Shown: positions 10,860-46,802, numbered from the stretch's first letter. The stretch is DNA of 49,031 nucleotides from Candidatus Limnocylindrales bacterium (GCA_036277775.1 DASUMJ010000217.1:1-49031), one strand, 5' to 3'. The notes: generated by a model from the sequence alone, not told the origin. Numbers and translations: made by a program.

Positions 10860-11761
10860 CAGCCGGCCGAGAGGACCTTCTCGACCTCGTCGAGCAGCAC
10901 CTGCGGCGTGGCCGCCCGGATGAAGAAGAACGGCCGCTCACAGAAGCGGGCGACGAACTCCGCCCGTCGCCGCCGGAGGGCGTCGGTGTCGAGGAGGGGC
11001 ATGACGTGGCCGGGGGCCAGCAGCTCGTTCGTCAGGAAGTAGTTCTGGAGGGAGTGCAGGAACTGGAACTGGGCCTCGAATGGGATGAGCCGGTTGGTGG
11101 CGGGGTCGAAGTTGCCATCGATGGCGGGCACGACCACGAGGTCGATCTCGGGCGTCCCGTCGTAGAAGCCCCAACTCGGCATGTCGCCCCAGAACTTCTC
11201 CACGCCTCGGTTCGGTGCGGCCTTGTCGGACCGCTCGGTCCCCTCCGTCCGCTTGACGAGGAACGGCTCGACCGAGCCCATGACGGCCCGTCCCGCCTCG
11301 TCGATCACGGTCGTCTCGGATGCGACCTGGAGGCCGCCCCGGAGCCCGGTCTCGATCAGGCCCATGCTCTTGCCGTGGTTGGACTCGCCGCCGAGGAAGA
11401 GGATCGTTCGGCCCTGGTAGTGGACCGCCGCGCTGTGCGATGGGTGCAGGCCCGCGGCCTCCATCCGAAGAGCCAGGACCGCCACGATCACCTTCTGGAT
11501 CGGGCCCGCCGGCCAGTCGCCGCTGAACCTCACGACCCCCGCGTCGTATGTGATGTCCTTCGGGCCGTCGACGAGCCACACGATGTCCGGCGTGGGAAGG
11601 GTCACCTCCGGGGAGATCCGGACGTCGGCAAGTCGGTAGTTGAGGAAGCTGAGGTCGTCGAGGACGTGGGCCCTCGGCGGCCCGCCGACGACGTCGACCC
11701 GGAGGCGGGCCGCGCCCGCCGAGAACTCTTCGGTGAGCTGGGGCTGGACCTGGGCGTTCAT
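10859..11761 (-). CDS. Hypothetical P-loop protein, HPr kinase/phosphorylase C-terminal-domain-like
   Basis: Start set to ATG 11761 (AAAGGAA RBS). 'ILFLGGESNHGKSMGLIETGLRGGLQVASETTVID' parallels the HprK Walker-A region (GxSGxGKSExALELxxRGHxLxADD). No other recognisable domain. Confidence 0.65.
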   Translation of the reverse strand: MNAQVQPQLTEEFSAGAARLRVDVVGGPPRAHVLDDLSFLNYRLADVRISPEVTLPTPDIVWLVDGPKDITYDAGVVRFSGDWPAGPIQKVIVAVLALRMEAAGLHPSHSAAVHYQGRTILFLGGESNHGKSMGLIETGLRGGLQVASETTVIDEAGRAVMGSVEPFLVKRTEGTERSDKAAPNRGVEKFWGDMPSWGFYDGTPEIDLVVVPAIDGNFDPATNRLIPFEAQFQFLHSLQNYFLTNELLAPGHVMPLLDTDALRRRRAEFVARFCERPFFFIRAATPQVLLDEVEKVLSAG

Positions 11762-25723: not shown

Positions 25724-26530
25724 GTGGCGCAAGCAGTCCTGCAAGTTTCTGACACCGACGAGCCCCGCCAGGAGCTGGCTGTCCACCGCCGCCAGCGACT
25801 GGTCCATCTCGTCGAGGCGCGCGGCGCGGCGCGCCTGGAGGAACTGAGCGCGGCACTCGGGGTTTCGCAGGCGACGGTGCGTCGCGATCTCAACGCCGTC
25901 AGCGAGGCAGGCCGCCTGCGGCGGGTCCACGGCGGCGCGGTCGCGGTCGACCAGCGGCTCGACGAGCTTCACTTCGACGTGAAGGCCGGCGCCGCTGCGG
26001 CCGAGAAGGGCCGGATCGCGGCGGCCGCGGCCAGGCTCCTCTCGCCGACGGACACCGTCTACCTCGACAGCGGCAGCACCGTACTGGCCCTCGCCCGCCT
26101 GCTCCACGGCTGGACGCGCCTGACGGTCGTCACGAACAGCCTTCCCGTCGCGATGGAGCTCGTGGGTCGGGGACCGCGCCTGATCCTGCTCGGCGGCGAG
26201 CTTCGGGCGACGAGCCGGGCGATCGTCGGGCCGCTGACCCGCCACCTGCTCGAGGACCTCCACGTCGACCGCGCGGTGATGGGCACGTTCGCCCTGTCGC
26301 TCGAGGAGGGGCTCATGACGACCGATCCGGCGGAGGCCTTCACGAAGCAGCTCGTCCTGTCGCGAGCTCGCGAGGTCATCCTGCTGGCCGACAGCTCGAA
26401 GCTCGGAACGCGGTCCTTCGTCGGAGCCGGCCGCCTCGCGGACATCGACGTCTTCGTGACCGACTCGGCGATCGAAGCCGGGGTGGCGCGGAAGCTCGGT
26501 CGCCGTGGCATCCGGGTGATCACGGCATGA
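25724..26530 (+). CDS. DeoR/GlpR family transcriptional regulator
   Basis: The HTH is 'RLEELSAALGVSQATVRRDLNAV', followed by a sugar-phosphate-binding DeoR C-terminal domain ('VYLDSGSTVLALA','TNSLPVA'). The GTG start at 25724 is an inference. Confidence 0.85.
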   Translation: MAQAVLQVSDTDEPRQELAVHRRQRLVHLVEARGAARLEELSAALGVSQATVRRDLNAVSEAGRLRRVHGGAVAVDQRLDELHFDVKAGAAAAEKGRIAAAAARLLSPTDTVYLDSGSTVLALARLLHGWTRLTVVTNSLPVAMELVGRGPRLILLGGELRATSRAIVGPLTRHLLEDLHVDRAVMGTFALSLEEGLMTTDPAEAFTKQLVLSRAREVILLADSSKLGTRSFVGAGRLADIDVFVTDSAIEAGVARKLGRRGIRVITA

Positions 26531-26558
26531 CGCGGGATCGCGCTGCTGGCAGGGCCCG

Positions 26559-28889
26559 ATGACTCGGAGGACGCCGGCCATCGTAGCTCCGACGTATCGC
26601 AGCGACGCGCGTCCGGACTTCGCACCGTTCGAGGAAGCGTGCGGGATGGTCCGGGGTTTCAGCTTCGACGGGACCGTCGCAGCGGAGGTCGCGGCGGGCC
26701 GCCTGACGGATGTCGATGCCCTGGCGCTGCTCGACGACATGCTCGCGATCCGGGAGCTCGAGGAGATGATCGTGCAGCTCCGGTCGGGTGGCTACGATCC
26801 GCTGCCGGGCTTCGACTACCGCGGCCCAACCCACGTGTCGATCGGCCAGGAGGCGGCGGCGGTGGGTACCGCCTCGGCGCTCCAGGCCGGCGACTACATC
26901 ACGAGCAGCCATCGCGGCCATGGCGACGCCATCGCCAAAGGCTTCGCCGCGATCCGGGGGATGACCGTGGACGGGCTCCGTGCTCGGGTCCCCGGCGCGG
27001 CCACGACGCGCGGTGAGCTCCTGGACGCCGCCCTCGAGGAGCACGTCTACCGGACCATCGCCGAGCTGTTCGGCAAGGAGGAGGGGTACTGCCGGGGGCG
27101 CGGCGGCGGGATGCACATCGGCGACTTCGCGACAGGCCACCTCGGGGCCAATGCGATCGTCGGCGGCAGCGTCCCGATCGCGACGGGCGCAGCGATGGCC
27201 GTCCGCTACCAGGGGACGGGCCAGGTCGTGTGCTGCATGGCCGGTGACGGAGCGTACGCCAACGGGGTGGTCCTCGAATCGCTGAACTGGGCGGCCCAGC
27301 ACCAGTGGACGAACCACCTCGCCGGCGACCGGGCCGCCGGTCTGCCGATCATCTACGTCATCCAGAACAACCACTACGGGATGACCCATCGGACCGACGA
27401 GGAGGTGATGGGGGTCCGCCACCTCGCTCGACGGGCGGCCGGCTTCGCCGAGAACAACATGCACGCGGAGGTCGTGAACGGGATGGACGTCCTCGCGGTC
27501 CGGGACGCGGTCGCTCGCGCGGCGGCGATCTGCCGGGCCGGCGAGGGGCCGGTCCTCCTCGAGCTGAGCACCTACCGCTACTACGGCCACTCCCTGTCCG
27601 ATCCCCGAAACGAGTACCGCACCCGGGAGGAGGAGGCCGCGTGGCGGGCGGTCGATCCGATCGAGCGGCTGCGGGGGCAGATCATCGAGGCGGGCGCCGC
27701 CGACCGCGGAGCCGCCGAAGCCGCCCTCGCCGCGGTCGCGTCCCGGGCGGCCGATCGCAACGCGCGGGCGGCCGTCCGCGCCGCAGCGGCGACCGACCCC
27801 GATCCGGCGGACCTCCTGGCCCACCTCTACACCGACACGGTCGCGGATGTCGTTCCGGAAGGCTCGCGCGCGGTCACGATCGAGGCCGACCCGCCCGTCG
27901 CCGTGCGCGACGCGGCGGGCCAGATCAGCTACCGCGACGCGCTCCGCGAAGCGCTCGCCGAGGAGATGGCCCGCGACAGTCGGATCATCCTCTACGGCGA
28001 GGACATCGCCGACTACGGCGGAGCTTTCAAGCTGACGAAGGGTCTCCTCGAGACCTTCGGGCGAGCGCGCGTCTTCAACACGCCGATCTCCGAGGCCGCG
28101 ATCTGCGGCACGGCCGTCGGGGCAGCGATCGTCGGGCTCCGCCCCGTCGTGGAGCTCATGTACATGGACTTCGCGCTGATGGCCTCGGACCAGATCGCGA
28201 ACCAGGCCGCGAAGTGGCACTTCATGAGTGGCGCGCAGGTCGAGGTCCCGCTCGTCATCCGGGCCTCGGTCGGGGCCGGCAAGGGGTACGGCGGCCAGCA
28301 CTCCCAGTCGCTCGAGAGCCTCTTCACGCACATGCCGGGCCTGTACGTCCTCTACCCGGCCACGCCCGAGGACGCCAAGGGCCTCCTGAAGTCGGCGATC
28401 CGGACGAACAACCCCGTGCTCTTCGTCGAGAGCCAGGGGCTGTACGGCACGAAGGGCGTCGTGCCCGACGAGGAGACCCTCACCCCGATCGGGGTGGCCC
28501 GCGTCGCTCGCCGCGGGACCGACGTGACCCTCGTCGGCTGGGGGCCGGCCGTCCCGGACCTGCTCACGGCCGCCGCGGCGCTGGAGGCGGAGCACGGCAT
28601 CTCATGCGAGGTCATCGACCTCCGGAGCCTCGTGCCGCTCGACATCGGGACGGTCCTGGACTCCGTCCGCCGGACCGGCCGCTGCGTGGTGGCGAGCCAG
28701 GCGGTCCTCATCGGCAGCTTCGTGAACGAGCTCATCGCCCGGATCCAGGCCGAGGCGTTCGACGATCTCGACGGGCCGATCGGTCGGGTCGGCGCCGCGA
28801 ACGGCATCTCGCCCCAGGCGGAGGGCCTGGAGCGGGCCTTCCTCCCGGGACCGGACGACATCGTGCGCGCCGTCCTCGCGATCGGCTGA
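26559..28889 (+). CDS. 2-oxoacid (acetoin/pyruvate/BCKA-type) dehydrogenase E1 component, fused alpha-beta
   Basis: 776 aa. The alpha part has the TPP motif 'GDGAYANG...NNHYGM'. The beta part has 'RVFNTPISEAAICGTAVGAA' and 'FVESQGLYG'. Confidence 0.9.
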   Translation: MTRRTPAIVAPTYRSDARPDFAPFEEACGMVRGFSFDGTVAAEVAAGRLTDVDALALLDDMLAIRELEEMIVQLRSGGYDPLPGFDYRGPTHVSIGQEAAAVGTASALQAGDYITSSHRGHGDAIAKGFAAIRGMTVDGLRARVPGAATTRGELLDAALEEHVYRTIAELFGKEEGYCRGRGGGMHIGDFATGHLGANAIVGGSVPIATGAAMAVRYQGTGQVVCCMAGDGAYANGVVLESLNWAAQHQWTNHLAGDRAAGLPIIYVIQNNHYGMTHRTDEEVMGVRHLARRAAGFAENNMHAEVVNGMDVLAVRDAVARAAAICRAGEGPVLLELSTYRYYGHSLSDPRNEYRTREEEAAWRAVDPIERLRGQIIEAGAADRGAAEAALAAVASRAADRNARAAVRAAAATDPDPADLLAHLYTDTVADVVPEGSRAVTIEADPPVAVRDAAGQISYRDALREALAEEMARDSRIILYGEDIADYGGAFKLTKGLLETFGRARVFNTPISEAAICGTAVGAAIVGLRPVVELMYMDFALMASDQIANQAAKWHFMSGAQVEVPLVIRASVGAGKGYGGQHSQSLESLFTHMPGLYVLYPATPEDAKGLLKSAIRTNNPVLFVESQGLYGTKGVVPDEETLTPIGVARVARRGTDVTLVGWGPAVPDLLTAAAALEAEHGISCEVIDLRSLVPLDIGTVLDSVRRTGRCVVASQAVLIGSFVNELIARIQAEAFDDLDGPIGRVGAANGISPQAEGLERAFLPGPDDIVRAVLAIG

Positions 28890-28908
28890 CTCGGGACAGG
28901 CGGGAGCG

Positions 28909-30183
28909 ATGGCACACGCGGTCCGGATGCCGAAACCCGGACAGATGACCGAGGAATGCCTGCTCACCCTGTGGCGGAAGGCCGAGGGCGAGCTCGTGGC
29001 CAAGGGCGACGTCCTGTTCGAGATCGAGACCGACAAGTCGACGATGGAGGTCGAGTCCTTCCACGACGGCGTACTCCTGCGGCACGTCGTCCCGGCCGGC
29101 GAGTTCGTGCCCGTGAACGCCGTATGCGCCTGGATCGGGGATCCGGGGGAATCGATTCCGGACGGTGCGTCGGCCCTGGACGCAGCCGCACCGACGCAGA
29201 CGGAGCCCGAGCCGACGGCAGACACGGCCAGGGCCCCGGCAACGCAGCGAGCGGCGCCTGCCGGGGCGGCGGCCGCAGCCGCATCACCGCAAGAGCCGAG
29301 TCGCGATCCGGACGGTCCCGTCCCGGCCATCAGCCCGCGGGCCCGCCGGCTCGCTTCCGCGAGCGGCCTGGATCCGCGCTCGGTTGCCGGCTCCGGTCCC
29401 GGCGGCCGGATCGTCGAGCGCGACGTGCAGGCAGCCCTCGCGGCCGGCGCAGCGCTCGCACGGAACGGCGAGCTCGCTGGACCGACCGAGGACGAGGCCG
29501 CACCCCGCCCGCTAAGCCGGATGCGTCGTGTCATTGCCGAGCGCCTGACCCTCAGCGCGACCACGATCCCGACGTTCTCGGTCACGGTCACGGCCGACGT
29601 CAGCCGCCTCCTCGCGCTCCGGGACGAGCTGCGGGCGGCCGGTGTCCACCTGACGGTGACCGATGTGGTCCTGTTCGCCACCGCGCAGACCCTGGCGGAG
29701 TTCCCGGACGTCAACTCTCGCACGGACGGCGTCCAGGTCTGGCCGAGGCGGCGGGTCCATCTCGGCCTGGCCATCGCGCTGCCGGCCGGCCTCGTCGTCG
29801 CGGTGCTCCGGGATGCCGATCGGCTTGGGGTCGTCGAGATCCATGACCAGGCTGCCGCTCTGGTCACCGCGGCCCGTGCCGGGACGCTGGGCGTCGACGA
29901 CCTCCGCGGCAGCACGTTCACCGTGAGCAACCTCGGGATGTACGGCGTCGACGACTTCACGGCCATCGTCAACCCGGGTGAATCCGGGATCCTCGCGGTT
30001 GCCGCTGCCGTCCCGACCCCGGTCGTGATCGGCGACGGAATCGCCGTGAGGACGCTCATGAAGCTGACGCTGTCGGCCGACCACCGGCTTGTCGACGGGG
30101 AGCTCGGCGCCAGGTTCCTCAACGCGGTCCGGCGTCGGCTCGAGGACGCGACCGCCGTGCGTCGGGAGCTCGCGAGCAGCTAG
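28909..30183 (+). CDS. Dihydrolipoamide acyltransferase (E2 component)
   Basis: It has the lipoyl motif 'EIETDKSTMEVES', a subunit-binding domain 'ISPRARRLASASGLD', and the catalytic motif 'LSADHRLVDG'. Confidence 0.92.
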   Translation: MAHAVRMPKPGQMTEECLLTLWRKAEGELVAKGDVLFEIETDKSTMEVESFHDGVLLRHVVPAGEFVPVNAVCAWIGDPGESIPDGASALDAAAPTQTEPEPTADTARAPATQRAAPAGAAAAAASPQEPSRDPDGPVPAISPRARRLASASGLDPRSVAGSGPGGRIVERDVQAALAAGAALARNGELAGPTEDEAAPRPLSRMRRVIAERLTLSATTIPTFSVTVTADVSRLLALRDELRAAGVHLTVTDVVLFATAQTLAEFPDVNSRTDGVQVWPRRRVHLGLAIALPAGLVVAVLRDADRLGVVEIHDQAAALVTAARAGTLGVDDLRGSTFTVSNLGMYGVDDFTAIVNPGESGILAVAAAVPTPVVIGDGIAVRTLMKLTLSADHRLVDGELGARFLNAVRRRLEDATAVRRELASS

Positions 30184-30643: not shown

Positions 30644-31528
30644 CTACCCGCCCGGGAACGGCAGGGTCGGGAGCCTGGCGCCGGCGGAGGGCGGGGTCGC
30701 GTTGATCTCGTGGCAGAGGAGGCAGGTCGAGTCCTCGCGGAGCGCGTGGTCGATCGGCAGCCCGCCCGTCTGGGCCGACTGGTGGCACTCCCGGCAGCCG
30801 ATCGCCGGCTCCAGCACGTGCGGGTACTCGGGCGGTGGCAGCTCCGTCGGCCGGTGGCAGAGCCAGCACTCGTTCTCGTCCTTCGCGACCATGCTCGTGG
30901 GCAGGTGGGCGAACGTCCCGTGGCAGTCGAGGCACTGCTGGTCCTGGAGCTCCGAGTGCGGCTGGGTGATCGACGGGCCTTCCGGCGGGAGCTTGTGGCA
31001 GTTCAGGCACTCGACCTCGGGGATGTCGGTGTGGCCCGGAGCGCTCCGACCGAGGTCCTCGTCGGTGTGGCAGGTGACGCAGCGGCGCCAGCCCTCGAGG
31101 GGATGGCCGATCGCCGGGATCGTCTTCAACCCGCCCGATCCGCCGGTCTCGTGACAGAGGAGGCAGCTGCTGCTCGTCGGGATGTGGGCGAGGCCCATCG
31201 ACATGAGGTCGATCGACGGTTCGGCGGTCGCCCGGTCGGGGCGGCCGGCCGGGTCGGCGAACGAAGTCAGGAAGACGATCGCGAGCAGCCCGATGACGAG
31301 GGCGTTCGCGACGAGGAGCGCCCGGATCGCGAGCTCGATCGGGCCGCGGACGCCCCGGATCCGGAACCGCCGGATGCCGCGCCGGGCAGGCTTCGCCGGC
31401 GGCGTCGCCGCGTCGAGCTCGGGCGCCGTCGCGGACGGCGGCCCGGGCGGCGTCCCGGGCGGCGGCTCGGGGGCCGCGTCGGGGAGCGGCTCGTCCGCGG
31501 GCGGCGGGGGCAGCTCCGGGTCGGTCAT
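30644..31528 (-). CDS. Membrane-anchored heptaheme c-type cytochrome
   Basis: There are seven CxxCH motifs: CLLCH, CVTCH, CLNCH, CLDCH, CWLCH, CRECH, CLLCH. The N-terminus is Pro-rich and followed by one TM helix ('ALLVANALVIGLLAIVFL'). The ATG overlaps the cytochrome b stop (ATGA at 31525-31528). Confidence 0.85.
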   Translation of the reverse strand: MTDPELPPPPADEPLPDAAPEPPPGTPPGPPSATAPELDAATPPAKPARRGIRRFRIRGVRGPIELAIRALLVANALVIGLLAIVFLTSFADPAGRPDRATAEPSIDLMSMGLAHIPTSSSCLLCHETGGSGGLKTIPAIGHPLEGWRRCVTCHTDEDLGRSAPGHTDIPEVECLNCHKLPPEGPSITQPHSELQDQQCLDCHGTFAHLPTSMVAKDENECWLCHRPTELPPPEYPHVLEPAIGCRECHQSAQTGGLPIDHALREDSTCLLCHEINATPPSAGARLPTLPFPGG

Positions 31529-32343
31529 TCGACCTTCTCCAGGAGCTCCGGCCCGCCGTCGCGCGCCTCGAGGATCTCCTCGCGGGTCACGTACTTGAAG
31601 CCGCTGAAGATGCTCGAGAGGAGCCCGTTCTTCTCGAGATGGTCCACGAGGACGCAGCTGTAGAGATGGAAGAGGGAGATCGCGAGGATCGCCCACATCG
31701 CCAGGTGGTGGATGAGCCGGACGAGCTGCGGTCCGAGGACGCCGAGCACCCAGCCGAAGCCCGTCGCACCGGGCTCGGAGCCGAGCAGGCCGTCGAGGGC
31801 GAAGCCGGTGATCGTCTCGACGAGGAGCAGCCCCCAGAGGATCAGGTACGCCGAGGCGGCCAGCTGGTTGTGGCCGAGGATCCGCGGGATCTCCTTGCGC
31901 AGGAACGCGTAGAACGCGGCCTGCCGGAAGACCTCGGTCGCCTGGTTCCAGGTCGTCGGGATGAATGCCGACCAGCGCGCGAACCGGTTACCGGTGAGGA
32001 GCCAGATCACCCGCAGGAGCCCGGACGCGAGCAGGGTGAACGCGGCAATCATGTGGACGAGGCGGACGGTCGTCATCACCGCGCCGCCGGGCGGCAGGAG
32101 GAACGGATCGGCGATGTAGAGCCCGGTGACGCTGAGGACGACGATGCAGGCCGCCGTCACCCAGTGGGTGATCCGGACGGGCACCTCCCAGACGTAGAGG
32201 CGGAAGCGCTCCTCCGCCCGGCCGGCGCCGTGGCCGTGGGCAGGCGCTGCCAGCGTCCCCGGTGCCGCGGTCGTGGCCGGCGTTGCCGGGGCGGGCACGA
32301 CGATGGGCTCGGCGGTGGCGGTCATCGGGGCGACGTCCTCCAT
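31525..32343 (-). CDS. Ni/Fe-hydrogenase b-type cytochrome subunit (HyaC/HupC-like)
   Basis: 'RFRLYVWEVPVRITHWVTAACIVVLSVTGLYI' matches the family N-terminus, and the protein has four TM helices. The ATG shares 1 nt with the large-subunit stop (TGATG at 32341-32345). An alternative start lies at 32325. Confidence 0.85.
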   Translation of the reverse strand: MEDVAPMTATAEPIVVPAPATPATTAAPGTLAAPAHGHGAGRAEERFRLYVWEVPVRITHWVTAACIVVLSVTGLYIADPFLLPPGGAVMTTVRLVHMIAAFTLLASGLLRVIWLLTGNRFARWSAFIPTTWNQATEVFRQAAFYAFLRKEIPRILGHNQLAASAYLILWGLLLVETITGFALDGLLGSEPGATGFGWVLGVLGPQLVRLIHHLAMWAILAISLFHLYSCVLVDHLEKNGLLSSIFSGFKYVTREEILEARDGGPELLEKVE

Positions 32344-34046
32344 CACTGCACCGCGCAGGCCGGGCACGGGTCGAACGAGTGGACCGTCCGAAGGACCTCG
32401 ATCGGATTCGCGAGGTCGGGCACGGGCGTGCCGACGAGGGCCTCCTCGAGCGCGCCCCGGCGGCCCCGGCTGTCGCGCGGCGAGAGGTTCCAGGTGCTCC
32501 CGTCGACGACCTGGTACGCGGTGACGCGGCGGTCCCGGATCCGGAGCCAGTGGCCCACGGTGCCCTTCCCGGACTCGCCGAGCGACCAGCCCTCGGCCTC
32601 GGCCGGCCAGGTGGCGGGATCCCAGCGCGAGATGTCGGCGAACGCGAGGTCGCCCGCCGCGAGGTTCGCGACGAGGTCCGCGAGCCAGGCGTCGAGGCGG
32701 TCGGCCACGATCTTCGCTTCGATCGCCCGGGCGACGGTCCGGCCGAGCGTGCTCGAGAAGGCGTCCAGGTCGAGGTCGAGGTTCTCGAGGACCCGGGCGA
32801 CGGTCCGGCCGGCATCGCCGCCGACGGCGTGGGCGACGAGCAGCCGGGCGGCCGGCCCCACCTCCACCGGGTCGTCGAAGTAGCGCGGCGCCTTCGACCA
32901 GCTGTACCGGGCGGCGCCCTGGAGCGTGGTGACCGGCGGCGGCGGGCCCTGGTAGTGGGGGTCGGTGGATCCGTCATACGGGTGCCGGACCTCGGCGCCC
33001 GAGCCGCGGTCGTGGGTCGTGGCGACGCCCTCGCCGAATCCCGCCTGGTCGACCGTGTCGAGCTCGTCGAGGACCCCGTCCATCAGGCGCCCGCGGGGCA
33101 GCAGGAGGGCCGGATCGTCCTCGTCATCCTCCGGGAACTCTCCGGCCGCGAGGTAGTTGCCGATGCCCCGCCCGACACCCGCCTGGTCGCGATAGATGTC
33201 GGCGAGGTAGAGGACGTCCGGCAGGTAGACCTCGTCGACGAACGCCCTCGTGCGGGTGACGAGATCGGCGATCTGGGCGAGCCCGCGCTCCCCGAGCGCC
33301 GCGGGCGCTTCCGACTGCGGCCGGCGCGGGTGCTCGCCCGTCGTGGCCCGGGCGGGGCCGCCCCACGGCGGCGTCAGGGCGAGACCGCCGACGAGGAAGG
33401 TCTGCGGGTGGGGGCTCTTGCCGCCGAAGAAGGTGTGGAGCCGGGTCATGCCACGGCGCCAGTCCAGCGCCTCGAGGGCGTGGGCCGCGACCATGAGATT
33501 CGCCGACGACGTGAGGCGGTGCGCGGCCCCGCCGGCCCCGGCCCGCCCGAACGTCCCGAGGTCGCCCGACGCGACGAGGCTCGCCAGCCGCTCGCGCGCC
33601 CGACGGAAGTAGACGAGGTCGGTGCGCGGCCCCTCGGCGACGGAGCGCGCGATCCCGGACGCCGTCGCCGGATCCCCCGATGCCCCGGCGACGAGATCCG
33701 CCCAGTCCGGAGCGTGCCGCTGGTAGAAGCCGGTCACGTGGCTCGTCACGAGCTGCGACCCGGCCACGAGGTTCCGGACGAGCCGCGCATTCGGTGGGAT
33801 GCGGATCTTCAGCGCCCGTTCGACGGCCCGGACCGACGCGAGGCCGTGGACCCCGTTGCAGGACCCGCAGATCCGCTCCGCGAGGAGCCAGGCGTCGCGC
33901 GGGTCGCGCCCCACGAGCGACCGCTCGATCCCGCGGAACATCGTGGCGGCGCTCCAGGCGTCGACGACGACGCCCCGCTCGACCTCGACCTCGATTCGGA
34001 GCTGGCCGCCGACCCGCGTCACGGGATCGATGACGAGGCGGGTCAT
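32343..34046 (-). CDS. [NiFe]-hydrogenase large subunit (group 1-like, atypical motifs)
   Basis: It has 'FRGIERSLVGRDPRDAWLLAERICGSCNGVH' (the N-terminal Ni-Cys pair), 'GGKSPHPQTFLVGG', and the C-terminal 'LRTVHSFDPCPACAVQ' followed directly by the stop. ATGA overlap with the small subunit gene. Confidence 0.93.
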   Translation of the reverse strand: MTRLVIDPVTRVGGQLRIEVEVERGVVVDAWSAATMFRGIERSLVGRDPRDAWLLAERICGSCNGVHGLASVRAVERALKIRIPPNARLVRNLVAGSQLVTSHVTGFYQRHAPDWADLVAGASGDPATASGIARSVAEGPRTDLVYFRRARERLASLVASGDLGTFGRAGAGGAAHRLTSSANLMVAAHALEALDWRRGMTRLHTFFGGKSPHPQTFLVGGLALTPPWGGPARATTGEHPRRPQSEAPAALGERGLAQIADLVTRTRAFVDEVYLPDVLYLADIYRDQAGVGRGIGNYLAAGEFPEDDEDDPALLLPRGRLMDGVLDELDTVDQAGFGEGVATTHDRGSGAEVRHPYDGSTDPHYQGPPPPVTTLQGAARYSWSKAPRYFDDPVEVGPAARLLVAHAVGGDAGRTVARVLENLDLDLDAFSSTLGRTVARAIEAKIVADRLDAWLADLVANLAAGDLAFADISRWDPATWPAEAEGWSLGESGKGTVGHWLRIRDRRVTAYQVVDGSTWNLSPRDSRGRRGALEEALVGTPVPDLANPIEVLRTVHSFDPCPACAVQ

Positions 34047-35257
34047 GCCGGCGCTCCCGGAGTGCCCGCCGGTTCATCGGGCGGCGGCACCGGTGCCGGA
34101 GCCTCCGCGACGACCTCGTCCGCTGCACGGGCCGCCCGGGCCGCCTGCGCGGCCCGCCGCCGGGCGATGAACCCGTTCCGGACCTCGCGGGCGTAGGTCG
34201 CGGCGCCGTGGGCGACCGTGACCGCCCCGACCGCACCGACGAGCCCGAGGCCGATCTGGTCCGCGGTCAGGTTCGGGACGAACGGGATCGTCGCCGGGAG
34301 CCGAGCGTAGGCCGGGCCCATCGAGTCCCAGAACCGGGGCATGACGCAGCCGACGCAGCCGTGGCCGGCCTTGATGTTCCAGCTCGTCTTCGACGCGTAC
34401 TGCGCGGTCGCGCAATTCGCGAACGTCTCGGGTCCCTTGCACCCGAGCTTGTAGAGGCACCAGCCCTTCTGGGCTCCCTCGTCGCCCCAGGCCAAGGCGA
34501 ACTCGCCGAACTCGTAGTGGGCCCGCCGTTCGCACTGGTTGTGGATCAGGTCGCCGTACGCGAAGTACGGCCGGCGGCGCCCGTCCGCGGGCGGCAGCTC
34601 GCCGAACGTGAGGTAGTGGACGATCGTCGCCACGAGGTTGTCGACGTTCATCGGGCTGCCGGGCAGGACGATGAGCCGGGACGTGTCGACGACGTCCGCG
34701 ACGCCGACGGACCGGGTCAGGTCGGGGCTCGCCGCGGCCGCGCCGCCGTCGAACGCGCACGACCCGACCGCGATCGTCGCGATCGCGCCGTCGGAGACCT
34801 CGCGGACGAGGTCGCGGAACGGGCGGCCGCCGATCGCGCAGGCCATCCCGTCCTCGGCCGTCGGGATGGCACCCTCGACGATCGCGAGGTAGCCGTTCGG
34901 GTGGCGCGTCATCGTCGTGGTCCGGGCGAGGGTCGCGGCTTCGCCGGATTCCGCCATGAGCGATTCGAGGTAGCCGACCGAGACGACCTCGAGCAGCAGT
35001 TCCCCGATCGTCGGCTTCGCCGCGGCGAGGAACGCCTCCATCTCGCCGCCGCAGCCCTGCCCCCGGAGCCAGATGACCGGGAAGCGCGGCGCGGCCTCGA
35101 CCGCGGCCGCGATCCGCGGGGCGTAGGTGGCCGGAAGCGCGAGCGCGGCCGCCATGGCGGCGCTGAACCGGAGGAACGCCCGGCGCGTCATCCCGTGGCG
35201 GACGAGCGCGGCATAGAGCCCGTCATCCGGCCTGGTCATCGGTTCCACGTCACTCAT
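34043..35257 (-). CDS. [NiFe]-hydrogenase small subunit, Tat-exported, with C-terminal membrane anchor
   Basis: The twin-arginine signal is '[20 protein letters not shown]'. Distal and medial cluster motifs are 'HNQC','[12 protein letters not shown]','ANC','GHGCVGC'. The C-terminal TM helix is '[19 protein letters not shown]'. An alternative start lies at 35239. Confidence 0.93.
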
Positions 35258-35528
35258 CGGTCGGCCGCCGTCGAGCCGGACCCGGAGGTGGGTCGCAGCA
35301 GTCGGGCCGGCAGCCCTTCCGTGGCTCGATGATGGGCGGCGGATCGGGCCCGGCCACGAGCCGTCGGTCCGCAACGACCGGGCCAAACGGCATCGAGCAG
35401 GTGGCCGAACGGCCGGGGCGGCCGGGCGCATGGGCGGCCCGGCGCCGCGGCCCCGCGGCGGCGCCCTCGCTTCATGGCGCCTAGACTCGGTTCGGCAGGT
35501 CCCCGGCCTCCATGACCAGGAGGATGAC

Positions 35529-37964
35529 GTGACGAAGACCCACGACGCGGTCGACGCAGCCGGAACAGCCGGCGCAGCCGGGACAGCCGGTGCAGCCGGT
35601 GCAGCCGGCCCCCTCTCCCCCGCCGAGCTCGACCGGATCGACGCCTGGTGGCGGGCCGCCAACTACCTGTCCGTCGGCCAGATCTACCTCCTCGACAACC
35701 CGCTCGTCCGGGAGCCGCTGCGCCCCGAGCACGTGAAGCCCCGGCTCCTTGGCCACTGGGGCACGACGCCGGGAATCAACTTCATCTACGCCCACATGAA
35801 TCGCGTGATCCGGAGCTGGGACCTCGATGCGATCTACGTCATCGGGCCCGGCCACGGGGGCCCGGCGACGGTCGCCAACGCGTACCTCGAGGGGACCTAC
35901 TCGGAGGTCTACCCGAGCATCACCCGCGACCTCGACGGCCTGCGGCGGCTCTTCCGCCAGTTCTCGTTCCCGGGCGGCATCCCGAGCCACGTCGCGCCCG
36001 AGACGCCCGGTTCCATCCACGAGGGCGGCGAGCTCGGGTATGCGCTGTCGCACGCCTACGGGGCCGCCTTCGACAACCCCGATCTCGTCGTCTGCTGCGT
36101 CGTCGGGGACGGCGAGGCGGAGACGGGTCCGCTCGCCACGAGCTGGCACTCGAACAAGTTCCTCAACCCGGTGACGGACGGCGCGGTCCTGCCGATCCTC
36201 CACCTGAACGGCTACAAGATCGCGAACCCGACGGTCCTCGCGCGGATCCCCGAGTCGGAGCTCCGGTCGCTCCTCGAGGGTTACGGACACCACCCGTACT
36301 TCGTGACCGGCGACGAGCCGGCGGTGGTCCACCAGCAGATGGCGGCGGTCATGGACACCGTCATCGAGGAGATCCACGCGATCCAGCGAGCGGCCCGCGA
36401 GGAGGGGGCGACCGCGCGACCGGCCTGGCCGATGATCGTCCTCCGGACGCCGAAGGGCTGGACCGGCCCGAAGGAGATCGACGGGAAGCCCGTCGAGGGG
36501 ACGTGGCGCTCCCACCAGGTCCCGATGGGCGAGGTCCGGACCAACGCCGCGAACCGCCAGGTCCTCGAGGACTGGCTCCGGAGCTACCACCCCGAGGAGC
36601 TGTTCGACGAGGCCGGGACGCTCGTGCCGGACCTGGCGTCGCTCCCGCCCCGCGCGCACCGGCGGATGAGCGCAAACCCGAACGCCAACGGCGGGCTCCT
36701 GCTTCGCGACCTCGCCATGCCCGACTTCCGGGACTACGCGGTCGACGTCCCAGCGCCGGGAACGACGACGAGCGAGGCGACGCGGGTCCTCGGCGGGTTC
36801 CTTCGCGACGTCATGCGGCGGAACAGCTCGAGCTTCCGGGTGTTCGGGCCGGACGAGACGGCCTCGAACCGGCTCGGCGCGCTGTTCGAGGCCACGGACA
36901 AGGCGTGGATGGCCGAGGTCCTGCCGACCGACGAAGGCCTGGCGCCCGACGGCCGGGTCATGGAGGTGCTCTCGGAGCACCAGTGCCAGGGCTGGCTGGA
37001 GGGCTACCTGCTCACCGGCCGGCACGGCCTCTTCAACTGCTACGAGGCCTTCATCCACATCATCGATTCGATGTTCAACCAGCATGCGAAGTGGCTGAAG
37101 GTGACGGCCGACATCCCGTGGCGCCGCCCGATCGCGTCGCTCAACTACGTCCTGAGCTCGCTCGTCTGGCGCCAGGACCACAACGGCTTCAGCCACCAGG
37201 ACCCAGGCTTCATCGACCACGTCGTGAACAAGAAGGCCGAGCACATCCGGGTCTACCTGCCGCCCGACGCGAACACCCTCCTGTCGGTCGGCGACCACTG
37301 CCTCCGGAGCCGCAACTACGTCAACGTGATCATCGCGGGGAAGCAGGCGGCACCGAACTGGCTGCCGATGGACCAGGCGATCCTCCACTGCTCGCGGGGC
37401 ATCGGGATCTGGGAGTTCGCGAGCAACGACGAGGGCGGCGAGCCGGACGTCGTCCTGGGCTGCGCGGGCGACATCCCGACCCTCGAGACGCTCGCCGCGG
37501 TCGACATCCTCCGGCGCGAGCTGCCCGAGCTGAAGGTCCGGGTCGTCAACGTCGTCGACCTCATGCGACTCCAACCGCCCTCGGAGCACCCGCACGGCCT
37601 GTCGGACGGCGAGTTCGACTCGCTGTTCACGACCGACAAGCCGATCGTGTTCGCCTACCACGGCTACCCGTGGCTGATCCACCGGCTCACGTATCGCCGC
37701 CGGAACCACGGCAACCTCCACGTCCGCGGGTACAAGGAGGAGGGCACGACGACGACCCCGTTCGACATGGTCATGCTCAACGACCTCGATCGGTTCCACC
37801 TCGTGCTCGACGTCATCGACCGGGTGCCGGGGCTCGCCGACCGGGCCGGCCGCCTCCGCCAGCGGATGGTCGACCGGCGGCTCGAATGCCGGGCGTATAC
37901 CCGCCTCGAGGGTGAGGACGCCCCGGAGATCAGAACATGGGCCTGGCCCGGCGACGGCCAATGA
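35529..37964 (+). CDS. xfp: Phosphoketolase (xylulose-5-P/fructose-6-P phosphoketolase)
   Basis: GTG 35529 lies 4 nt after AGGAGGA. It has '[15 protein letters not shown]', '[10 protein letters not shown]' and '[15 protein letters not shown]'. 811 aa. Confidence 0.95.
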
Positions 37965-39136
37965 GCGACGGCGACGGCTCGGCGCCGACCGGCCACGGGG
38001 TCGCGGGTCCGACCGGCGACGGGGCCGCGGGGCCGATCCTCGTCGTCAATGCCGGCTCGAGCAGCCTGAAGCTCCGGCTCCTCGACGCGCTCGACGCCGT
38101 CGTCGGCACGGCGGACCTGCCGGCACCGCGCGGCGCCGCCGACGCATCCGCGATCGCGGGTGCGATCGCCGGCTTCGGGGCGCCCGGGTCGATCCGCGCG
38201 GTCGGTCACCGGATCGTCCACGGCGGCACCCGGTACCGGACCGCGGTCCGCCTCGACGCCGAGGTGGAGGCCGGGATCCGGGCCCTCACGGACCTGGCGC
38301 CGCTCCACCAGCCGAAGTCGCTCGCCGCGCTCGCCGCGGTTCGCGCGGCGCTTCCAGAGACGCCGGCGGTCGCCTGCTTCGACACCGCGTTCCACGCGAC
38401 GATGCCGCCCGCCGCCACGACCTACGCGATCCCGCCGGAGTGGCGGAAGCGCTGGGCGCTCCGCAAGTACGGCTTCCACGGCCTGTCCCACGCGTACGCC
38501 TCCCGGCGGGCGGCGGCCATCGTCGGGCGGCCCCTCGAGGAGCTCCGGATCGTGACCTGCCACCTCGGGGCGGGCGCCTCGCTCGCGGCGGTCCAGGGCG
38601 GCCGCTCGGTCGACACGACGATGGGCTTCACGCCCCTCGACGGGCTCGTCATGGCGACCCGCTCCGGGACGATCGACCCGGGGCTCGTGCTGTGGCTGGC
38701 GTCGCACGTCGGCATGCCGCCCGAGGAGCTCGCGGCGACGCTCGAACATCGGTCCGGGCTGCTCGGGCTCGCCGGGACCGACGACATGCGCGAGATCCTC
38801 GCGGCCGAGGCGAGCGGCGACGAGGCCGCGGCGCTCGCGATCGCCGTCTACCTCCACCGCCTCACGGCCTCGATCGCGGCGATGGCGGCCGCGATGGACG
38901 GCCTCGACGTCATCGTGTTCACGGGCGGTGTCGGCGAGCGGTCGGCGCCGATCCGCGAGCGGGCTGCGGCCGGCCTCGGGTTCCTCGGCGTCGCCCTGGA
39001 CGCGGCGAAGAACACCGAGGTGGCGGGCGACGCCGAGATCGGGCGGGCCGGCGCCACGGTCCGTGCGGTCGTCGTCGTTGCCCGCGAGGACCTCGAGATC
39101 GCGCGCGAGGTCCGGGCGGTGCTCGACCCCGGCTGA
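37961..39136 (+). CDS. ackA: Acetate kinase
   Basis: The ATG overlaps the xfp stop (ATGA at 37961-37964). It has '[15 protein letters not shown]', 'HRIVHGG' and 'GFHGLSH'. Confidence 0.93.
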
Positions 39137-44008: not shown

Positions 44009-45118
44009 TCAGGCCAGCCCGCGCCGGATCACCTCCGCGACCGCGCCGGCGCGAGCCGCCTTGCCGGAGGTCCCGAGCTTGCCGTAGGCGTTCGAAAGGT
44101 GGCGTTCGACGGTCCGGATGCTCAGCCCCAGCGAGGCGGCAATCTCGGCGTTCGCGAGACCCTTGGCGGCCGCGCGGATGACATCCAGCTCGCGTGGCGA
44201 GAGCGACTCGACTCCCGGCTCGCCGGAGTCGGCGAGCGTCCGTCGATCTGGCTCCAGGAAGGCCGTCATCTCGGCCATGAAGACCGGCCAGGCGGGCTCG
44301 TCGGCGAGGAGGATGTGGTTCCGGCTCTCGAGGGGCACCATGCGAGCGTTCGAGATTCGCGATGCTGCCGCCACCGCAGCCGTGAACGGGGTTGCCCGCT
44401 CGCCGACGGCATGGAGGATGAGCGTCGGCGCCTCGATCTTCGGCAGCTCGTCCCAGACGTCGGTCTGCTGTCGCGCGATCCGCGCGCTGACGGCGTTCTC
44501 CGGCGAGGTCGACATTCGCTGGAGGGCGTCGAACCACTGCATCTGCGGCTCGTCGGCGTCAGGAATGTAGATCGAGGTGAAGACGCGGCGGAAGATCGGG
44601 TCCTCCTTGGCCCAGCCCACTCGGATCATGCTCCGGTAGGTCTCCTCCTCGGGGAGCGCCTCGGGGTCGAACGTTCGAAGTCGGCCCGATCCCGAGCCGT
44701 AGAGCGCCAGCCGGGTCACGCGATCCGGATTCCGAGCCGCGTAGGCCAGCGCCACGACCGAGCCACCGGACATGCCCAGGAGCGCGAACCGCTCCAAACC
44801 CGCGCTCTCGATCACCGCCTCCAGGTCGCGGAGGCGCGGCTCGAGCGAGAAGTCGGCGACCGCCCAGTCCGACATCCCGAAGCCGCGCTCGTCGTAACGC
44901 ACGAGCGTGGAGATCGCGCCCAGGTCATCGAGGAAGTGGCGCCAGACGGGGCTCTGCCAATCGTGCTGGAGGTGGCTCAGCCAGCAGGAGACCACGACGA
45001 GTGGCGGTCCGCTGCCGTGCGCCGACCAGGCGATCCGGACGCCGTCGTCGCTCGCGGCGAACCGAACCTGCTGGCCGGGGTCGGTGCGAGGGTGCCTGGA
45101 CGGACGCGCGACGACCAT
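44009..45118 (-). CDS. Alpha/beta hydrolase domain fused to a LuxR-type C-terminal HTH
   Basis: Trimmed to ATG 45118. The hydrolase part has 'PPLVVV', '[10 protein letters not shown]' and the nucleophile elbow 'LLGMSGGS'. The C-terminal part has '[44 protein letters not shown]'. Confidence 0.85.
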
Positions 45119-45269
45119 GGTCGGCCCATCGTACCGGCCGGCGTCCAGCGACGGGCTTTCGCGGCATCGGGATCTGTCGCGGCCGCGGCGCGCGGAGGGT
45201 CCCGCACACCGAGACGGCAGATCCACCACGCGCAACCCCCGGGTGCGGGCTCGGACGGCTGCCGCCACC

Positions 45270-46802
45270 ATGTGGGCAATGCGGCCCACCCTGCGCGTCC
45301 TGGAGCCCGAGCTCATCGACCGCATCCTCGACGAGGCACTGCGCGTCCTCGCGACCTCGGGCATGGAGGTCCGCGGGGCGGAGCTGCGACGCCGACTCCT
45401 GGCAGCCGGGCTGCCCCTCGACGCCGCCGGCGAGCGGGTCCTCTTCCCGCGCGACGTCGTCGAGGCGGCGATCGCGAGCGCACCGTCGTCCTTCACGCTC
45501 TTCGATCGCGACGGCAGTCCCCACGCCGACCTCGGTGGGGATCGCGTCCACTTCGTCCCCGGCTCGTCGGGGCTGAAGGTCCAGGACCATCGGACCGGCG
45601 AGGTCCGGCTGGCCGGGACGACCGACTTCGTCGAGTACGTCCGGCTCGCAGACGGGCTCCGGAACATCGCCTACCTCGCGACGGCCTTCTCGACGAACGA
45701 CGACATCGAGGTCGCGGTCGCCGATGCGTGGCGGCTCTTCCTCGTCCTCACGAACTCGAAGCGGCCGGTCGTCTCGGGCGCGTTCACCGAGCATGGCGTC
45801 GAGCGGATGGTCGAGATGCAGCAGCTCTTCCGCCGCGACCGGGCGGACCTCGTCGCCCGCCCGATGTCGATCTTCACGATCACCGCATCGGGCAACTTTC
45901 GGTACAGCGAGGACTCCTGCCAGAACCTCATCGACTGCGTCGAGGCCGGGATCCCGGTCGAGATCGTGCCGGTCACGCTCCAGGGGCTGATCGCCCCCGT
46001 GACGACCGTCGGCGCGACGGTCTTCCACGCGGTCGACGTCCTCGCCGGGATCACGATGGCCCAGGTCGTCCGCCCGGGGGCGCCGGTGCTGTTCGGTGGC
46101 GCGCCGGCCACGTTCCACATGAAGATCGCGAGCTCGCCGATGGCGGCCATCGAGGCGCTCCAGCTCGACGTCGCCTACGTCGAGGTGGCCAAGGCCCTGG
46201 GCCTGCCCTGCCAGTCGTACATGGCGCTCTCGGACGCGAAGGTCCTGGACGCCCAGGCCGGAGCCGAGACGTTCGGGAGCGCGCTGCTCGCGGCGCTGGC
46301 CGGCGTGAACAGCGTGTCGGGCCCCGGGATGCTCGACTTCCTCCTCGTCTTCAGCCTGCCGAAGCTGCTCTTCGACGACGAGGTCTGCGGGCAGGTCCTC
46401 CACTTCGTCCGGGACGTCCATCCGGTCGACGACCTGCCCGTCGACGCCCTCCTCGACCAGCTCCGCGCAGACCAGCACCTGATCATGGCCGAGCACACCA
46501 CCGCGCACTGGCCGACGGAGCTCTACCTTCCGTCGCGGCTCTGGGAGCGCGACAACCGCGAGAACTGGGTGAAGGCCGGCGCCGCCGACACAGCGGAACG
46601 GGCCGCGGTCGAGGTGGACCGCCGCCTCGCGGCGTACCAGCCGGTCGAGACGGACCCGGTCGCCGTCGCGGAGCTCGAGCGGATCATCCGGAGCGGCCTG
46701 CAGGACCAGACCGAGCTGCCTCTTGTGCCGCCCGCCGACGCACCGGTGGCGCTGGCCGAGGCGGGCGACGCCCGCCGACGGAACCGCCGCCGCGGGGGCT
46801 GA
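45270..46802 (+). CDS. Trimethylamine methyltransferase (MttB) superfamily protein, non-pyrrolysine type
   Basis: The N-terminus '[24 protein letters not shown]' and the overall ~500-aa length fit the MttB family. There is no in-frame TAG. An alternative start lies at 45279. Confidence 0.8.

Follow-up and report, generated by a model that had tools for sequence, protein, structure and literature searches.

Recurrent serine at a proximal-cluster ligand position in a putative group-1f-type [NiFe] hydrogenase from Candidatus Limnocylindrales, encoded beside an altered large subunit

The stretch of DNA analyzed here, referred to as the window, is a 49,031-nucleotide contig (GCA_036277775.1 DASUMJ010000217.1:1-49031) from the MAG of a soil bacterium assigned to Candidatus Limnocylindrales (Chloroflexota). 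It carries an operon for a hydrogenase small subunit, a large subunit, a b-type cytochrome and a seven-haem cytochrome c (Table 1). All four genes are translationally coupled, with intact reading frames and strong codon bias. The large-subunit start overlaps the small-subunit stop (ATGA), the cytochrome b length is counted from an ATG that overlaps the large-subunit stop, and a further ATGA overlap joins the cytochrome b and cytochrome c genes. The small subunit contains PF01058 and PF14720 and scores 356 bits against TIGR00391; its NCBI record (HEX5590730.1) starts at Met7 and is 398 aa long. Residues R25, R26 and F28 of its Tat motif are invariant in the homologue alignment. The best PDB match of the large subunit is 3MYR_B (E = 6e-147), and a TM helix is predicted in the cytochrome c, whose gene is kept downstream in the closest loci. 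GC3 is 0.94 for the small-subunit gene and 0.95 for the large-subunit gene. Because the small subunit deviates at just 3 of 125 highly conserved columns, and thus is not an outlier, and because of its GC3 and the coupling of the genes, the window gene looks intact. No hyp maturation genes were found within the window, nor did tblastn detect a HycI-like protease gene there.

Table 1. Features of the hydrogenase operon, with positions counted from the first nucleotide of the window
Feature	Position	Strand	Basis
Small subunit gene (hyoS-like), 404 aa	34043..35257	-	Pfam/NCBIfam matches, PDB alignment
Tat signal motif T-R-R-A-F-L-R, residues 24-30	35168..35188	-	PF10518 weak match
Proximal motif C69-G-G-E72	35042..35053	-	Homologue alignments, codons checked
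Cys69 (TGC), equivalent to Hyd-1 Cys17	35051-35053	-	Alignment and codon check
Glu72 (GAG), at the Hyd-1 Cys20 position	35042-35044	-	Alignment and codon check
Cys167, equivalent to Hyd-1 Cys115 (ligand 3), in G-S-C-A-F-D-G-G	34757..34759	-	Alignment
Ser201 (AGC), at Hyd-1 Cys149 (ligand 4), in L-P-G-S-P-M-N	34655..34657	-	Alignment
Distal ligands His239, Cys242, Cys267, Cys273	34439..34543	-	Alignment
Medial ligands Cys282, Cys301, Cys304	34346..34414	-	Alignment
C-terminal hydrophobic anchor, small subunit	34190..34261	-	Aligns with HoxK anchor region, up to residue 357
Large subunit gene (hyoL-like), 567 aa	32343..34046	-	PF00374 at 516 bits
R-V-G-G-Q in place of R-I-E-G-H: Gly13 for the proton-gate Glu (Hyd-1 E28), Gln15 for His	34002..34016	-
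L1 nickel-iron ligands Cys60 and Cys63 (C-G-S-C)	33858..33869	-
Ser102 at canopy Asp118 (Hyd-1 numbering)	33741..33743	-
His213, counterpart of Hyd-1/Hyd-5 His229, a residue directed at the proximal cluster	33408..33410	-
Gly493-Lys494 for Pro508-Arg509 (pendant Arg to Lys)	32565..32570	-
L2 D-P-C-P-A-C-A-V-Q, followed by the stop codon	32346..32372	-
b-type cytochrome subunit (HyoE-like), 272 aa	31525..32343	-	TIGR02125 at 135.7 bits
Membrane-anchored cytochrome c, seven CxxCH motifs, 294 aa	30644..31528	-	Weak NrfB/c7/c3 family matches

Proximal-cluster ligands are numbered here as Cys17, Cys20, Cys115 and Cys149 of E. coli Hyd-1. A first-pass annotation, made by eye, had proposed that the small subunit keeps only two of these four cysteines, with Cys20 changed to Glu and Cys149 to Ser. 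This assignment is borne out at every codon and coordinate. The phmmer alignment to the C. necator HoxK and E. coli HyaA chains is gap-free across all three proximal motifs, and the identical register is recovered by MAFFT with 120, 257 or 150 homologues, with no other cysteine at a ligand position. All seven medial and distal ligands are present, as the annotation had also held, and Asn294 at the Pro242 position leads us to expect a 3Fe medial cluster. The protein has nine cysteines in total: the two proximal ones, those among the medial and distal ligands, and C140, which corresponds to the non-ligand Cys88 of HyaA and is conserved family-wide. None of the nine is a lineage-specific cysteine that could replace the lost ligands, and a compensating cysteine is ruled out; the window protein lacks even the common non-ligand Cys at position 103. 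Gly occupies both of the supernumerary sites (19 and 120), and the Met73 that follows Glu72 is seen only in the window's lineage. An AlphaFold2 model of the small subunit, built from a 25-sequence alignment, is too poor for geometry (mean pLDDT 60, ligand loops below 50). The ligand assignment is read directly from the residues and is no statistical pattern, so it calls for no chance expectation; the control that matters is the family.

In a family set of 257 small-subunit sequences aligned by MAFFT, position 20 is Asn in 155, Asp in 67, Glu in 27, Cys in 7 and Gln in 1. Glu72 is therefore a common trait of the family, not one peculiar to the window gene, and the non-Cys state of position 2 across the family (Asn, Asp or Glu) suggests that a three-cysteine proximal site is ancestral. 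Position 149, by comparison, is Cys in 253 sequences and Ser in 4. All remaining Fe-S cysteine ligand columns, including Cys17 and Cys115, are Cys in 257/257; position 19 is Gly in 257/257 and position 120 in 256/257. The motifs G-x-C-A-x-D-G-G and P-G-x-P-x-N are kept around the proximal site, as is Glu76 (255/257). This conservation of Cys17, Cys115, Glu76 and the local motifs, together with that of large-subunit His229, gives the proximal site the look of one that is retained. Among 150 representatives of group 1 at large, taken at 50% identity, no full-length protein outside the clade has a residue other than Cys at position 149. The exceptions are fragments, and the fragmentary P0291 is without Cys17 as well.

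The first-pass annotation did not recognize the combined ligand pattern. For ligand 2 the pattern is not new: non-Cys residues at this position are already published for groups 1f and 2a, with Asp or Asn documented for the group 1f enzymes of Roseiflexus, Geobacter and Frankia (PMC5364354), and the G. metallireducens replacement is listed in Table 1 of a survey in which Glu at ligand positions is rare (PMC4070099). For Cys149 to Ser the impression of novelty holds. Our literature search found no description of Ser at position 149, nor of a clade that lacks the Arg and Glu discussed below. A Cys-to-Ser study of A. vinelandii HoxK reportedly exists.

The closest genomic relatives are in Chloroflexota, followed by Roseiflexus, Geobacteraceae, Deferribacter, Acidobacteriota and Acidimicrobiia, and each of them has an SSU-LSU-cytochrome b operon. 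In the literature, the enzymes of the latter five taxa are classed as group 1f, or HyoSLE (PMC5364354, PMC6896113, PMC6776052, PMC11879354). The window therefore probably encodes a Tat-exported, group-1f-type (Hyo) hydrogenase, a class that is drawn from the taxa of its relatives. Several group 1 features are found, namely PF00374 with the L1 and L2 cysteines, a Tat signal, three Fe-S sites and a cytochrome b partner. Proximal ligation departs from the four-Cys pattern (Cys/Glu/Cys/Ser), as do the second-sphere residues from theirs, and the C-terminal extension and endopeptidase are missing. The window shares with Roseiflexus, Geobacter, Deferribacter, Acidobacterium ailaaui and Frankia synton-3, the group 1f examples compared, a Tat-exported anchored small subunit and the SSU-LSU-cytochrome b order, and Glu72 supplies the non-Cys ligand 2 of that group. 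Subunit sizes are also close (404 and 567 aa, versus 410-420 and ~573 aa for Frankia group 1f; PMC11879354). However, whereas hyoS-hyoL-hyoE is followed by a maturation protease gene in group 1f operons (PMC6896113), here S-L-E is present, the protease is absent and the seven-haem cytochrome c gene is added. The window also lacks the R-I-E-G-H, P-R-G, Asp118 and C-terminal extension of canonical group 1f enzymes, and has Ser at proximal ligand 4.

Other hydrogenases with unusual proximal sites are more distant. The small subunit gives an E value of about 4e-73 to group 1d/1e chains (HoxK) versus 6e-18 to 5AA5_A, the C. necator group 1h enzyme, in which three cysteines and an Asp hold a proximal cluster tied to O2 insensitivity (PMC11023054). 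The first-pass annotation had pointed to such an actinobacterial-type cluster; it does serve as a precedent for non-Cys ligation, but the Tat signal and the E value speak against membership in group 1h, which is cytoplasmic, has no Tat signal (PMC5364354) and keeps its other three cysteines. M. smegmatis Huc, of group 2a (7UTD/8DQV), has Asn at proximal ligand 2 (PMC4070099, PMC5364354) and a [3Fe-4S] proximal cluster held by three Cys; its other two clusters are 3Fe as well (PMC10017518). Huc is cytosolic and binds menaquinone, and matches the window protein at E ~1e-18; by analogy, its proximal site could plausibly stand for the ancestral state of the family. Among solved small subunits, group 1d HoxK and HyaA (3RGW, 3UQY) score best; they are ~45% identical and share the anchor and cytochrome b partner. 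These have six proximal cysteines, including Cys19 and Cys120, whereas the window protein has Gly at both positions and two cysteines left. In the A. macleodii hydrogenase, non-Cys residues at ligand positions can give active enzyme (PMC4070099). The substitutions tested there do not include Ser at ligand 4, to which a "privileged" position that tolerates almost no substitution maps tentatively, given a numbering offset.

Ser149 occurs in nine sequences from separate assemblies, which form three 90%-identity clusters, and is fixed in all nine. All three lineages use the AGC codon, and their nearest Cys149-bearing relatives are 92% (L008), 92% (P0149) and 75% identical. Ser149 arose on three independent occasions, and is found only at shallow tips of the tree. 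In the P0094 lineage it persists over up to 12% protein divergence with a dN/dS of ~0.18, indicating purifying selection. Among the Ser-bearing operons L081, L084 and L085 (pairwise dS 0.21-0.37), the small subunit has a dN/dS of 0.17-0.19 and the large subunit one of 0.17-0.20; cytochrome b, protease and cytochrome c lie close to these values. Purifying selection is thus measured in the P0094 lineage; the window's own lineage offers only nine codon differences (five synonymous, four not). This recurrence, fixation and selection indicate that Ser149 is neither error nor decay, and that Cys149 to Ser is the new part of the ligand pattern, being rare, recurrent and probably maintained by selection.

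Cys149 is replaced only by Ser. Of the seven non-stop substitutions that a single step from TGC can produce, two yield Ser, so the chance that all three events led to Ser is ~0.02. All three events occurred on Asp or Glu at position 20 although 60% of the clade has Asn, for a chance of ~0.06; with three events behind them, both arguments are weak. Strict covariation of Glu72 with Ser201 was rejected, since Glu is a clade trait of the P0094 lineage, Cys-bearing relatives included, and P0169 has Asp. What remains is a weaker apparent preference of Ser149 for carboxylate backgrounds. Met at position 21 (Met73) and Asp at position 127 (Asp179) occur in the window lineage alone (2/257 each), and in two of the three Ser events Pro122 has changed to Ala. 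Because Met73 and Asp179 are both missing from the other two Ser lineages, there is no common compensating residue, and no convincing large-subunit changes are shared across the Ser lineages.

In the large subunit, the four Ni-Fe cysteines (60, 63, 561 and 564) are present and conserved. However, of the residues equivalent to Glu28, Arg509, Asp118 and Asp574, only the last (Asp559) is retained. Glu28, Arg509 and Asp118 are described as crucial or strictly conserved, and engineered R-to-K variants retain 1-10% activity (PMC10430524). Those variants, E. coli Hyd-1 R509K and Hyd-2 R479K, were made by design, whereas the window carries the R-to-K change naturally, combined with others and under selection. 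L2 retains Cys561 and Cys564 and has Gln in place of the terminal His, and the protein ends without a C-terminal extension; a HycI-like protease gene is present in 62/68 loci whose large subunit has the extension. An apparent loss of His229 was rejected, because the His-to-Gly change at residue 173, when numbered against Hyd-5/Hyd-1, falls at the equivalent of His189, which is Ser in HoxG. The His229 equivalent is His in 121/121 large subunits.

The Ser-bearing relatives of the P0094 lineage keep Arg509, Asp118 and the protease, and the window large subunit has more catalytic-site changes than theirs. Across the clade that contains it, no member has the proton-gate Glu, ~39% of members carry Gly, Lys, Gln or Val instead of the pendant Arg, Ser or Gly frequently stands at Asp118, and one sub-branch has Asp for the bridging Cys79. 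Arg-less relatives of the large subunit have a dN/dS of 0.19-0.23. Together with the missing extension and protease gene and the seven-haem cytochrome c, these traits appear to define a widespread clade under selection, for which we found no description. The large subunit, which the first-pass annotation overlooked, is far more unusual than the adjacent small subunit.

The reading we favor, with some reservation, is that the gene product would serve for electron transfer in a functional group-1f-type enzyme, periplasmic and bound to the membrane, with an O-ligated proximal cluster that is retained but shifted in potential. By analogy with solved relatives, the three-Cys site of the family would hold a [3Fe-4S] cluster with a polar cap, as Huc does, or a carboxylate-ligated [4Fe-4S] cluster like that of the C. 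necator actinobacterial-type enzyme. In the window lineage, ligand 4 would have been exchanged for the isosteric Ser, whose O-gamma may replace the Cys149 thiolate or at minimum fill its space, while Glu72 would give a negative charge or a ligand. The expected cluster would thus have two thiolates plus O-donors and a shifted reduction potential, and electrons would pass through the canonical medial and distal clusters to cytochrome b, the seven-haem cytochrome c or both. Tolerance and recurrence of the Ser change in this clade may be due to the remodelled active-site canopy of the partner large subunit. With no Glu28, Arg509 changed to Lys and Asp118 to Ser, turnover is probably slow or mechanistically different, altering the demands on the proximal relay. 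Ser ligation of Fe-S clusters is rare in nature, and a proximal cluster on two thiolates alone is, to our knowledge, unprecedented. At the publication date of one survey, Ser ligation of an Fe-S cluster was unknown (PMC4070099). Precedents for related chemistry include the Asp-ligated proximal [4Fe-4S] cluster of group 1h and the three [3Fe-4S] clusters of Huc (PMC11023054, PMC10017518), and a Glu-ligated [4Fe-4S] cluster in NfnL (PMC9503767).

The cluster could instead be kept with Ser201 as no ligand at all, iron being bound by Glu72, by Met73 or Asp179, or by water or hydroxide, or with a [3Fe-4S] cluster held by a different set of three residues. Consistent with this are the Asp/Glu background of every Ser event, the confinement of Met at 21 and Asp at 127 to the window lineage, and the Pro122-to-Ala changes. 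We consider it unlikely, however, because the two other Ser lineages lack Met73 and Asp179, and because the exclusive choice of Ser argues for a continuing role of the residue-149 side chain. Quite improbable, in our judgment, is a proximal site that is empty or holds a smaller cluster, with no useful relay from the Ni-Fe site, so that the protein would act as a sensor or scaffold or perform chemistry elsewhere. Only two cysteines are left, the partner lacks three residues reported as crucial or strictly conserved (PMC10430524), neither C-terminal processing nor a protease gene is evident, and the P0291 fragment has lost Cys17 too. Nevertheless, the two cysteines, Glu76, large-subunit His229 and the medial and distal ligands are invariant or, for Glu76, nearly so, and the isosteric Ser is the sole substitute, Gly, Arg, Tyr, Phe and Trp never being seen. 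Moreover, the operon retains cytochrome b and the seven-haem cytochrome, which is sensible only given electron flow. General knowledge of hydrogenase structures also argues against an empty site, since without a proximal cluster the distance from Ni-Fe to the medial cluster is too great for physiological tunnelling.

The remaining explanation, that the Ser codon reflects an error or a mildly harmful mutation in a gene being lost, is largely refuted and very improbable. It would account for the shallow placement of Ser149, the alterations at several conserved large-subunit positions and the absence of hyp genes from the window. Sequencing error and a pseudogene are nevertheless rejected by the nine independently assembled sequences, by the intact, coupled frames with their strong codon bias, and by dN/dS, both for Ser149 across its protein divergence and for the Arg-less large subunits. 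The small subunit is, furthermore, no outlier at conserved columns.

A broader interpretation, which we put forward tentatively, is that the operon represents an undescribed, selection-maintained clade derived from group 1f in soil and freshwater Chloroflexota (Limnocylindrales and relatives). Its members may have dismantled the H2-activation apparatus, dropped proteolytic maturation in ~40% of cases, recruited a seven-haem cytochrome c and come to tolerate proximal O-donors. Either another second-sphere mechanism would then act on H2, or the pocket, now opened over the Ni-Fe site, would bind a different small molecule.

The proximal cluster sets the O2 tolerance and catalytic bias of [NiFe] hydrogenases, and its ligands have so far been varied chiefly through mutagenesis. 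Here, a single clade offers a natural series under selection, with Asn, Asp or Glu at ligand 2 and with or without Ser at ligand 4, which provides ready-made constructs on the tuning of a cluster by O-donors. It also offers a large subunit that is naturally without the Glu and Arg, yet in many soil Chloroflexota is under purifying selection. Should these enzymes still oxidize H2, another route will have to be added to models of H2 activation. If not, H2-oxidizing capacity is overestimated in metagenomic surveys where they are counted as group-1f uptake hydrogenases.

The first-pass annotation had reported that the small subunit retains only two of the four canonical proximal-cluster cysteines, with one Cys changed to Glu and another to Ser, and that its medial and distal cluster ligands are canonical. 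Both observations hold. By phmmer, the protein aligns with the HoxK and HyaA chains with zero gaps across the three proximal-cluster motifs, and the register is identical in each of three independent MAFFT alignments. When homologues are aligned, the ligand positions remain Cys69, Glu72, Cys167, and Ser201; no other Cys fits, and a search of the whole small subunit for a substitute found no extra Cys. Positions 19 and 120 (E. coli Hyd-1 numbering, used below for family positions) are both Gly.

Features of the hydrogenase operon and its altered residues
Feature	Coordinates	Strand	Remarks
Small subunit gene	34043-35257	-	First of four-gene operon; Pfam, NCBIfam; NCBI HEX5590730.1
Large subunit gene	32343-34046	-	Pfam, NCBIfam
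b-type cytochrome gene	31525-32343	-	Pfam, NCBIfam
Cytochrome c gene	30644-31528	-	Membrane-anchored; seven CxxCH motifs; directly behind cytochrome b gene
Hyd-1 Cys17 position			Small subunit Cys69
Hyd-1 Cys20 position			Small subunit Glu72 (codon GAG)
Hyd-1 Cys115 position			Small subunit Cys167
Hyd-1 Cys149 position			Small subunit Ser201 (codon AGC)
R-V-G-G-Q for R-I-E-G-H	34002-34016	-	Large subunit, N-terminal; Gly for Hyd-1 E28 (proton-gate Glu)
Ser for canopy Asp118	33741-33743	-	Large subunit
G-K-G for P-R-G	32565-32570	-	Large subunit; Gly-Lys for Pro508-Arg509 (pendant Arg509 to Lys)
D-P-C-P-A-C-A-V-Q, then stop	32343-32372	-	Large subunit end; no C-terminal extension

Two neighboring residues are also unusual. 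Met73 (35039-35041) directly follows Glu72, at a position that is otherwise Thr or Ser. In the loop behind Cys167, Asp179 (34721-34723) replaces a nearly invariant Gly/Asn. Each is found in just 2 of 257 aligned family sequences, namely the window protein and P0001, which comes from an independent assembly within this lineage. Both could be compensating residues near the proximal site.

The small subunit, large subunit, and cytochrome b are unambiguous family matches. Metagenomes contain many close homologues (60-75% identity), which derive from Chloroflexota MAGs. A tier at 44-52% identity includes Roseiflexus, Geobacteraceae/Desulfuromonadales, Deferribacter, Acidobacteriota, and Acidimicrobiia, in every case with small subunit-large subunit-cytochrome b operons. 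The enzymes of these taxa are classed as group 1f, or HyoSLE, which is described as polyphyletic and little studied (PMC6896113, PMC6776052, PMC11879354). The window enzyme probably descends from, and works like, the group-1f uptake hydrogenases; however, it lacks several defining features of canonical group 1 enzymes. The actinobacterial-type enzyme, to which it had been compared, is a different type, as judged by phmmer against solved chains.

Substitution at the second ligand has been described previously. Mohammadi et al. noted Asn or Asp in place of one proximal Cys in group 1f (PMC5364354), and Yonemoto et al. list "proximal, position 2, Cys to Asp" for G. metallireducens and Glu as rare at ligand positions (PMC4070099). 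Position 20 is Asn in 155, Asp in 67, Glu in 27, Cys in 7, and Gln in 1 of 257 family sequences. Glu72 is therefore one of the usual variants of a trait already published for this family. Thus, the Glu half of the pattern that the first-pass annotation did not recognize was already known (PMC5364354, PMC4070099), and the novelty lies in the Ser half: no description of Ser at proximal ligand 4 was found in the literature searched.

At position 149, 253 of the 257 sequences carry Cys and 4 carry Ser, and every other Fe-S cysteine ligand except position 20 is Cys in all 257. In a set of 150 wider group 1 representatives, no full-length protein outside the clade has a non-Cys residue at 149. Expansion of the three Ser-containing 90%-identity clusters yielded nine sequences from different assemblies, all with Ser, and the codon is AGC in each of the three lineages. 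Because two of these lineages have Cys-bearing nearest relatives at 92% identity, Ser149 arose at least three times. In the Ser-bearing lineage represented by P0094, three operons separated by dS values of 0.21-0.37 have a small-subunit dN/dS of 0.17-0.19 and a large-subunit dN/dS of 0.17-0.20, and their other genes give similar values; all selection estimates here come from sister lineages of the window's. Of 125 highly conserved columns, the window small subunit departs from consensus at 3, which does not make it an outlier. Given this distribution, the independent origins, the low dN/dS, and the few deviant columns, Ser201 is a real and rare change that has recurred and that is compatible with function.

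The residues, their distribution, their recurrence, and the selection on them are what the sequences show; beyond this, we infer that the proximal cluster is most likely kept. It would be bound by Cys69 and Cys167, with Ser201 filling the Cys149 ligand position and Glu72 adding charge or ligation, and its potential would be altered. Retention is supported by the conservation in family alignments of Glu76 and large-subunit His213 (the His229 equivalent), residues that adjoin the proximal cluster in known structures. The replacement of Cys149 is always Ser (chance ~0.02), and this Ser always accompanies Asp or Glu at ligand 2, though Asn is commoner there (chance ~0.06); with three events only, these regularities point weakly towards a retained site. 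Among enzymes with solved structures, three Cys bind the proximal [3Fe-4S] cluster of Huc (group 2a; PMC10017518), and group 2a alignments show Asn at proximal ligand 2 (PMC4070099, PMC5364354). The proximal [4Fe-4S] cluster of the group 1h enzyme has an Asp ligand (PMC11023054), and a Glu-ligated [4Fe-4S] cluster is known from NfnL (PMC9503767). By analogy, Huc and the group 1h enzyme may bracket the ancestral state of the family's proximal site. One fragmentary small subunit homologue, P0291 (262 aa), has Ile/Glu/Cys/Ser at the four ligand positions, leaving one Cys, and its lineage may have lost the proximal cluster completely.

The large subunit departs further from the usual pattern than the small one. 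PMC10430524 describes the Glu and pendant Arg as "crucial for activity" and the latter also as "strictly conserved", and reports 1-10% activity for engineered R-to-K variants. Among the 120 closest homologues of the window large subunit, the Glu28 position is Gly in 111, Asn in 6, and Glu in 0. Arg509 is replaced in ~39% (Arg 74, Gly 39, Lys 5, Gln 2, Val 1), and the Asp118 position holds Asp in 83, Ser in 24, and Gly in 7. I-E-G-H is intact in 51/51 canonical group-1f loci. Members lacking the Arg have dN/dS of 0.19-0.23 at dS 0.43-0.55. The residue changes and the missing C-terminal extension are clade traits rather than accidents.

The bridging Ni-Fe ligand Cys79 is Asp in 12 of the 120 (P0346-P0348, P0350, P0353-P0356, P0358-P0360, and P0364; locus L088, 411-2009). 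This sister sub-branch, 65-68% identical to the window large subunit, carries the motif R-I-C-G-S-D-N-G-V-H in otherwise intact, extension-less proteins from the same operon type.

The C-terminal extension is missing in 47 of ~120 closest large subunits. A HycI-like protease gene is present in 62/68 loci whose large subunit bears the extension and is absent from extension-less loci (the window and loci L001, L025, and L086-L088). The usual terminal His is Gln in the window protein, as in 20 of 121 relatives (His in 101). No hyp/maturation or protease genes were found across the whole window.

The four operon genes are translationally coupled, with an ATGA-type overlap at every junction, and have third-position GC of 0.94-0.97. 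The remaining genes of the window are ordinary metabolic ones. Phosphoketolase and acetate kinase genes (35430-39136, +) lie divergently immediately upstream of the operon, and a 2-oxoacid dehydrogenase E1/E2 pair (26520-30183) lies downstream. Elsewhere, a molybdenum hydroxylase of the CO dehydrogenase/xanthine dehydrogenase family is represented by its large and FAD subunits (7166-10937, -), and there is an MttB-family methyltransferase homologue (44898-46802, +).

In a comparison of 80 genome loci, all detections of the seven-haem cytochrome gene were in loci with a Glu28-less large subunit; none was in a canonical group-1f locus. All three Ser149 events fall within this Glu28-less clade, for which no description was found in the literature searched. 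As far as that literature shows, Glu72 is known, and what is new is Ser201 together with a cytochrome-c-linked clade of hydrogenases that lacks Glu28 and often Arg509.
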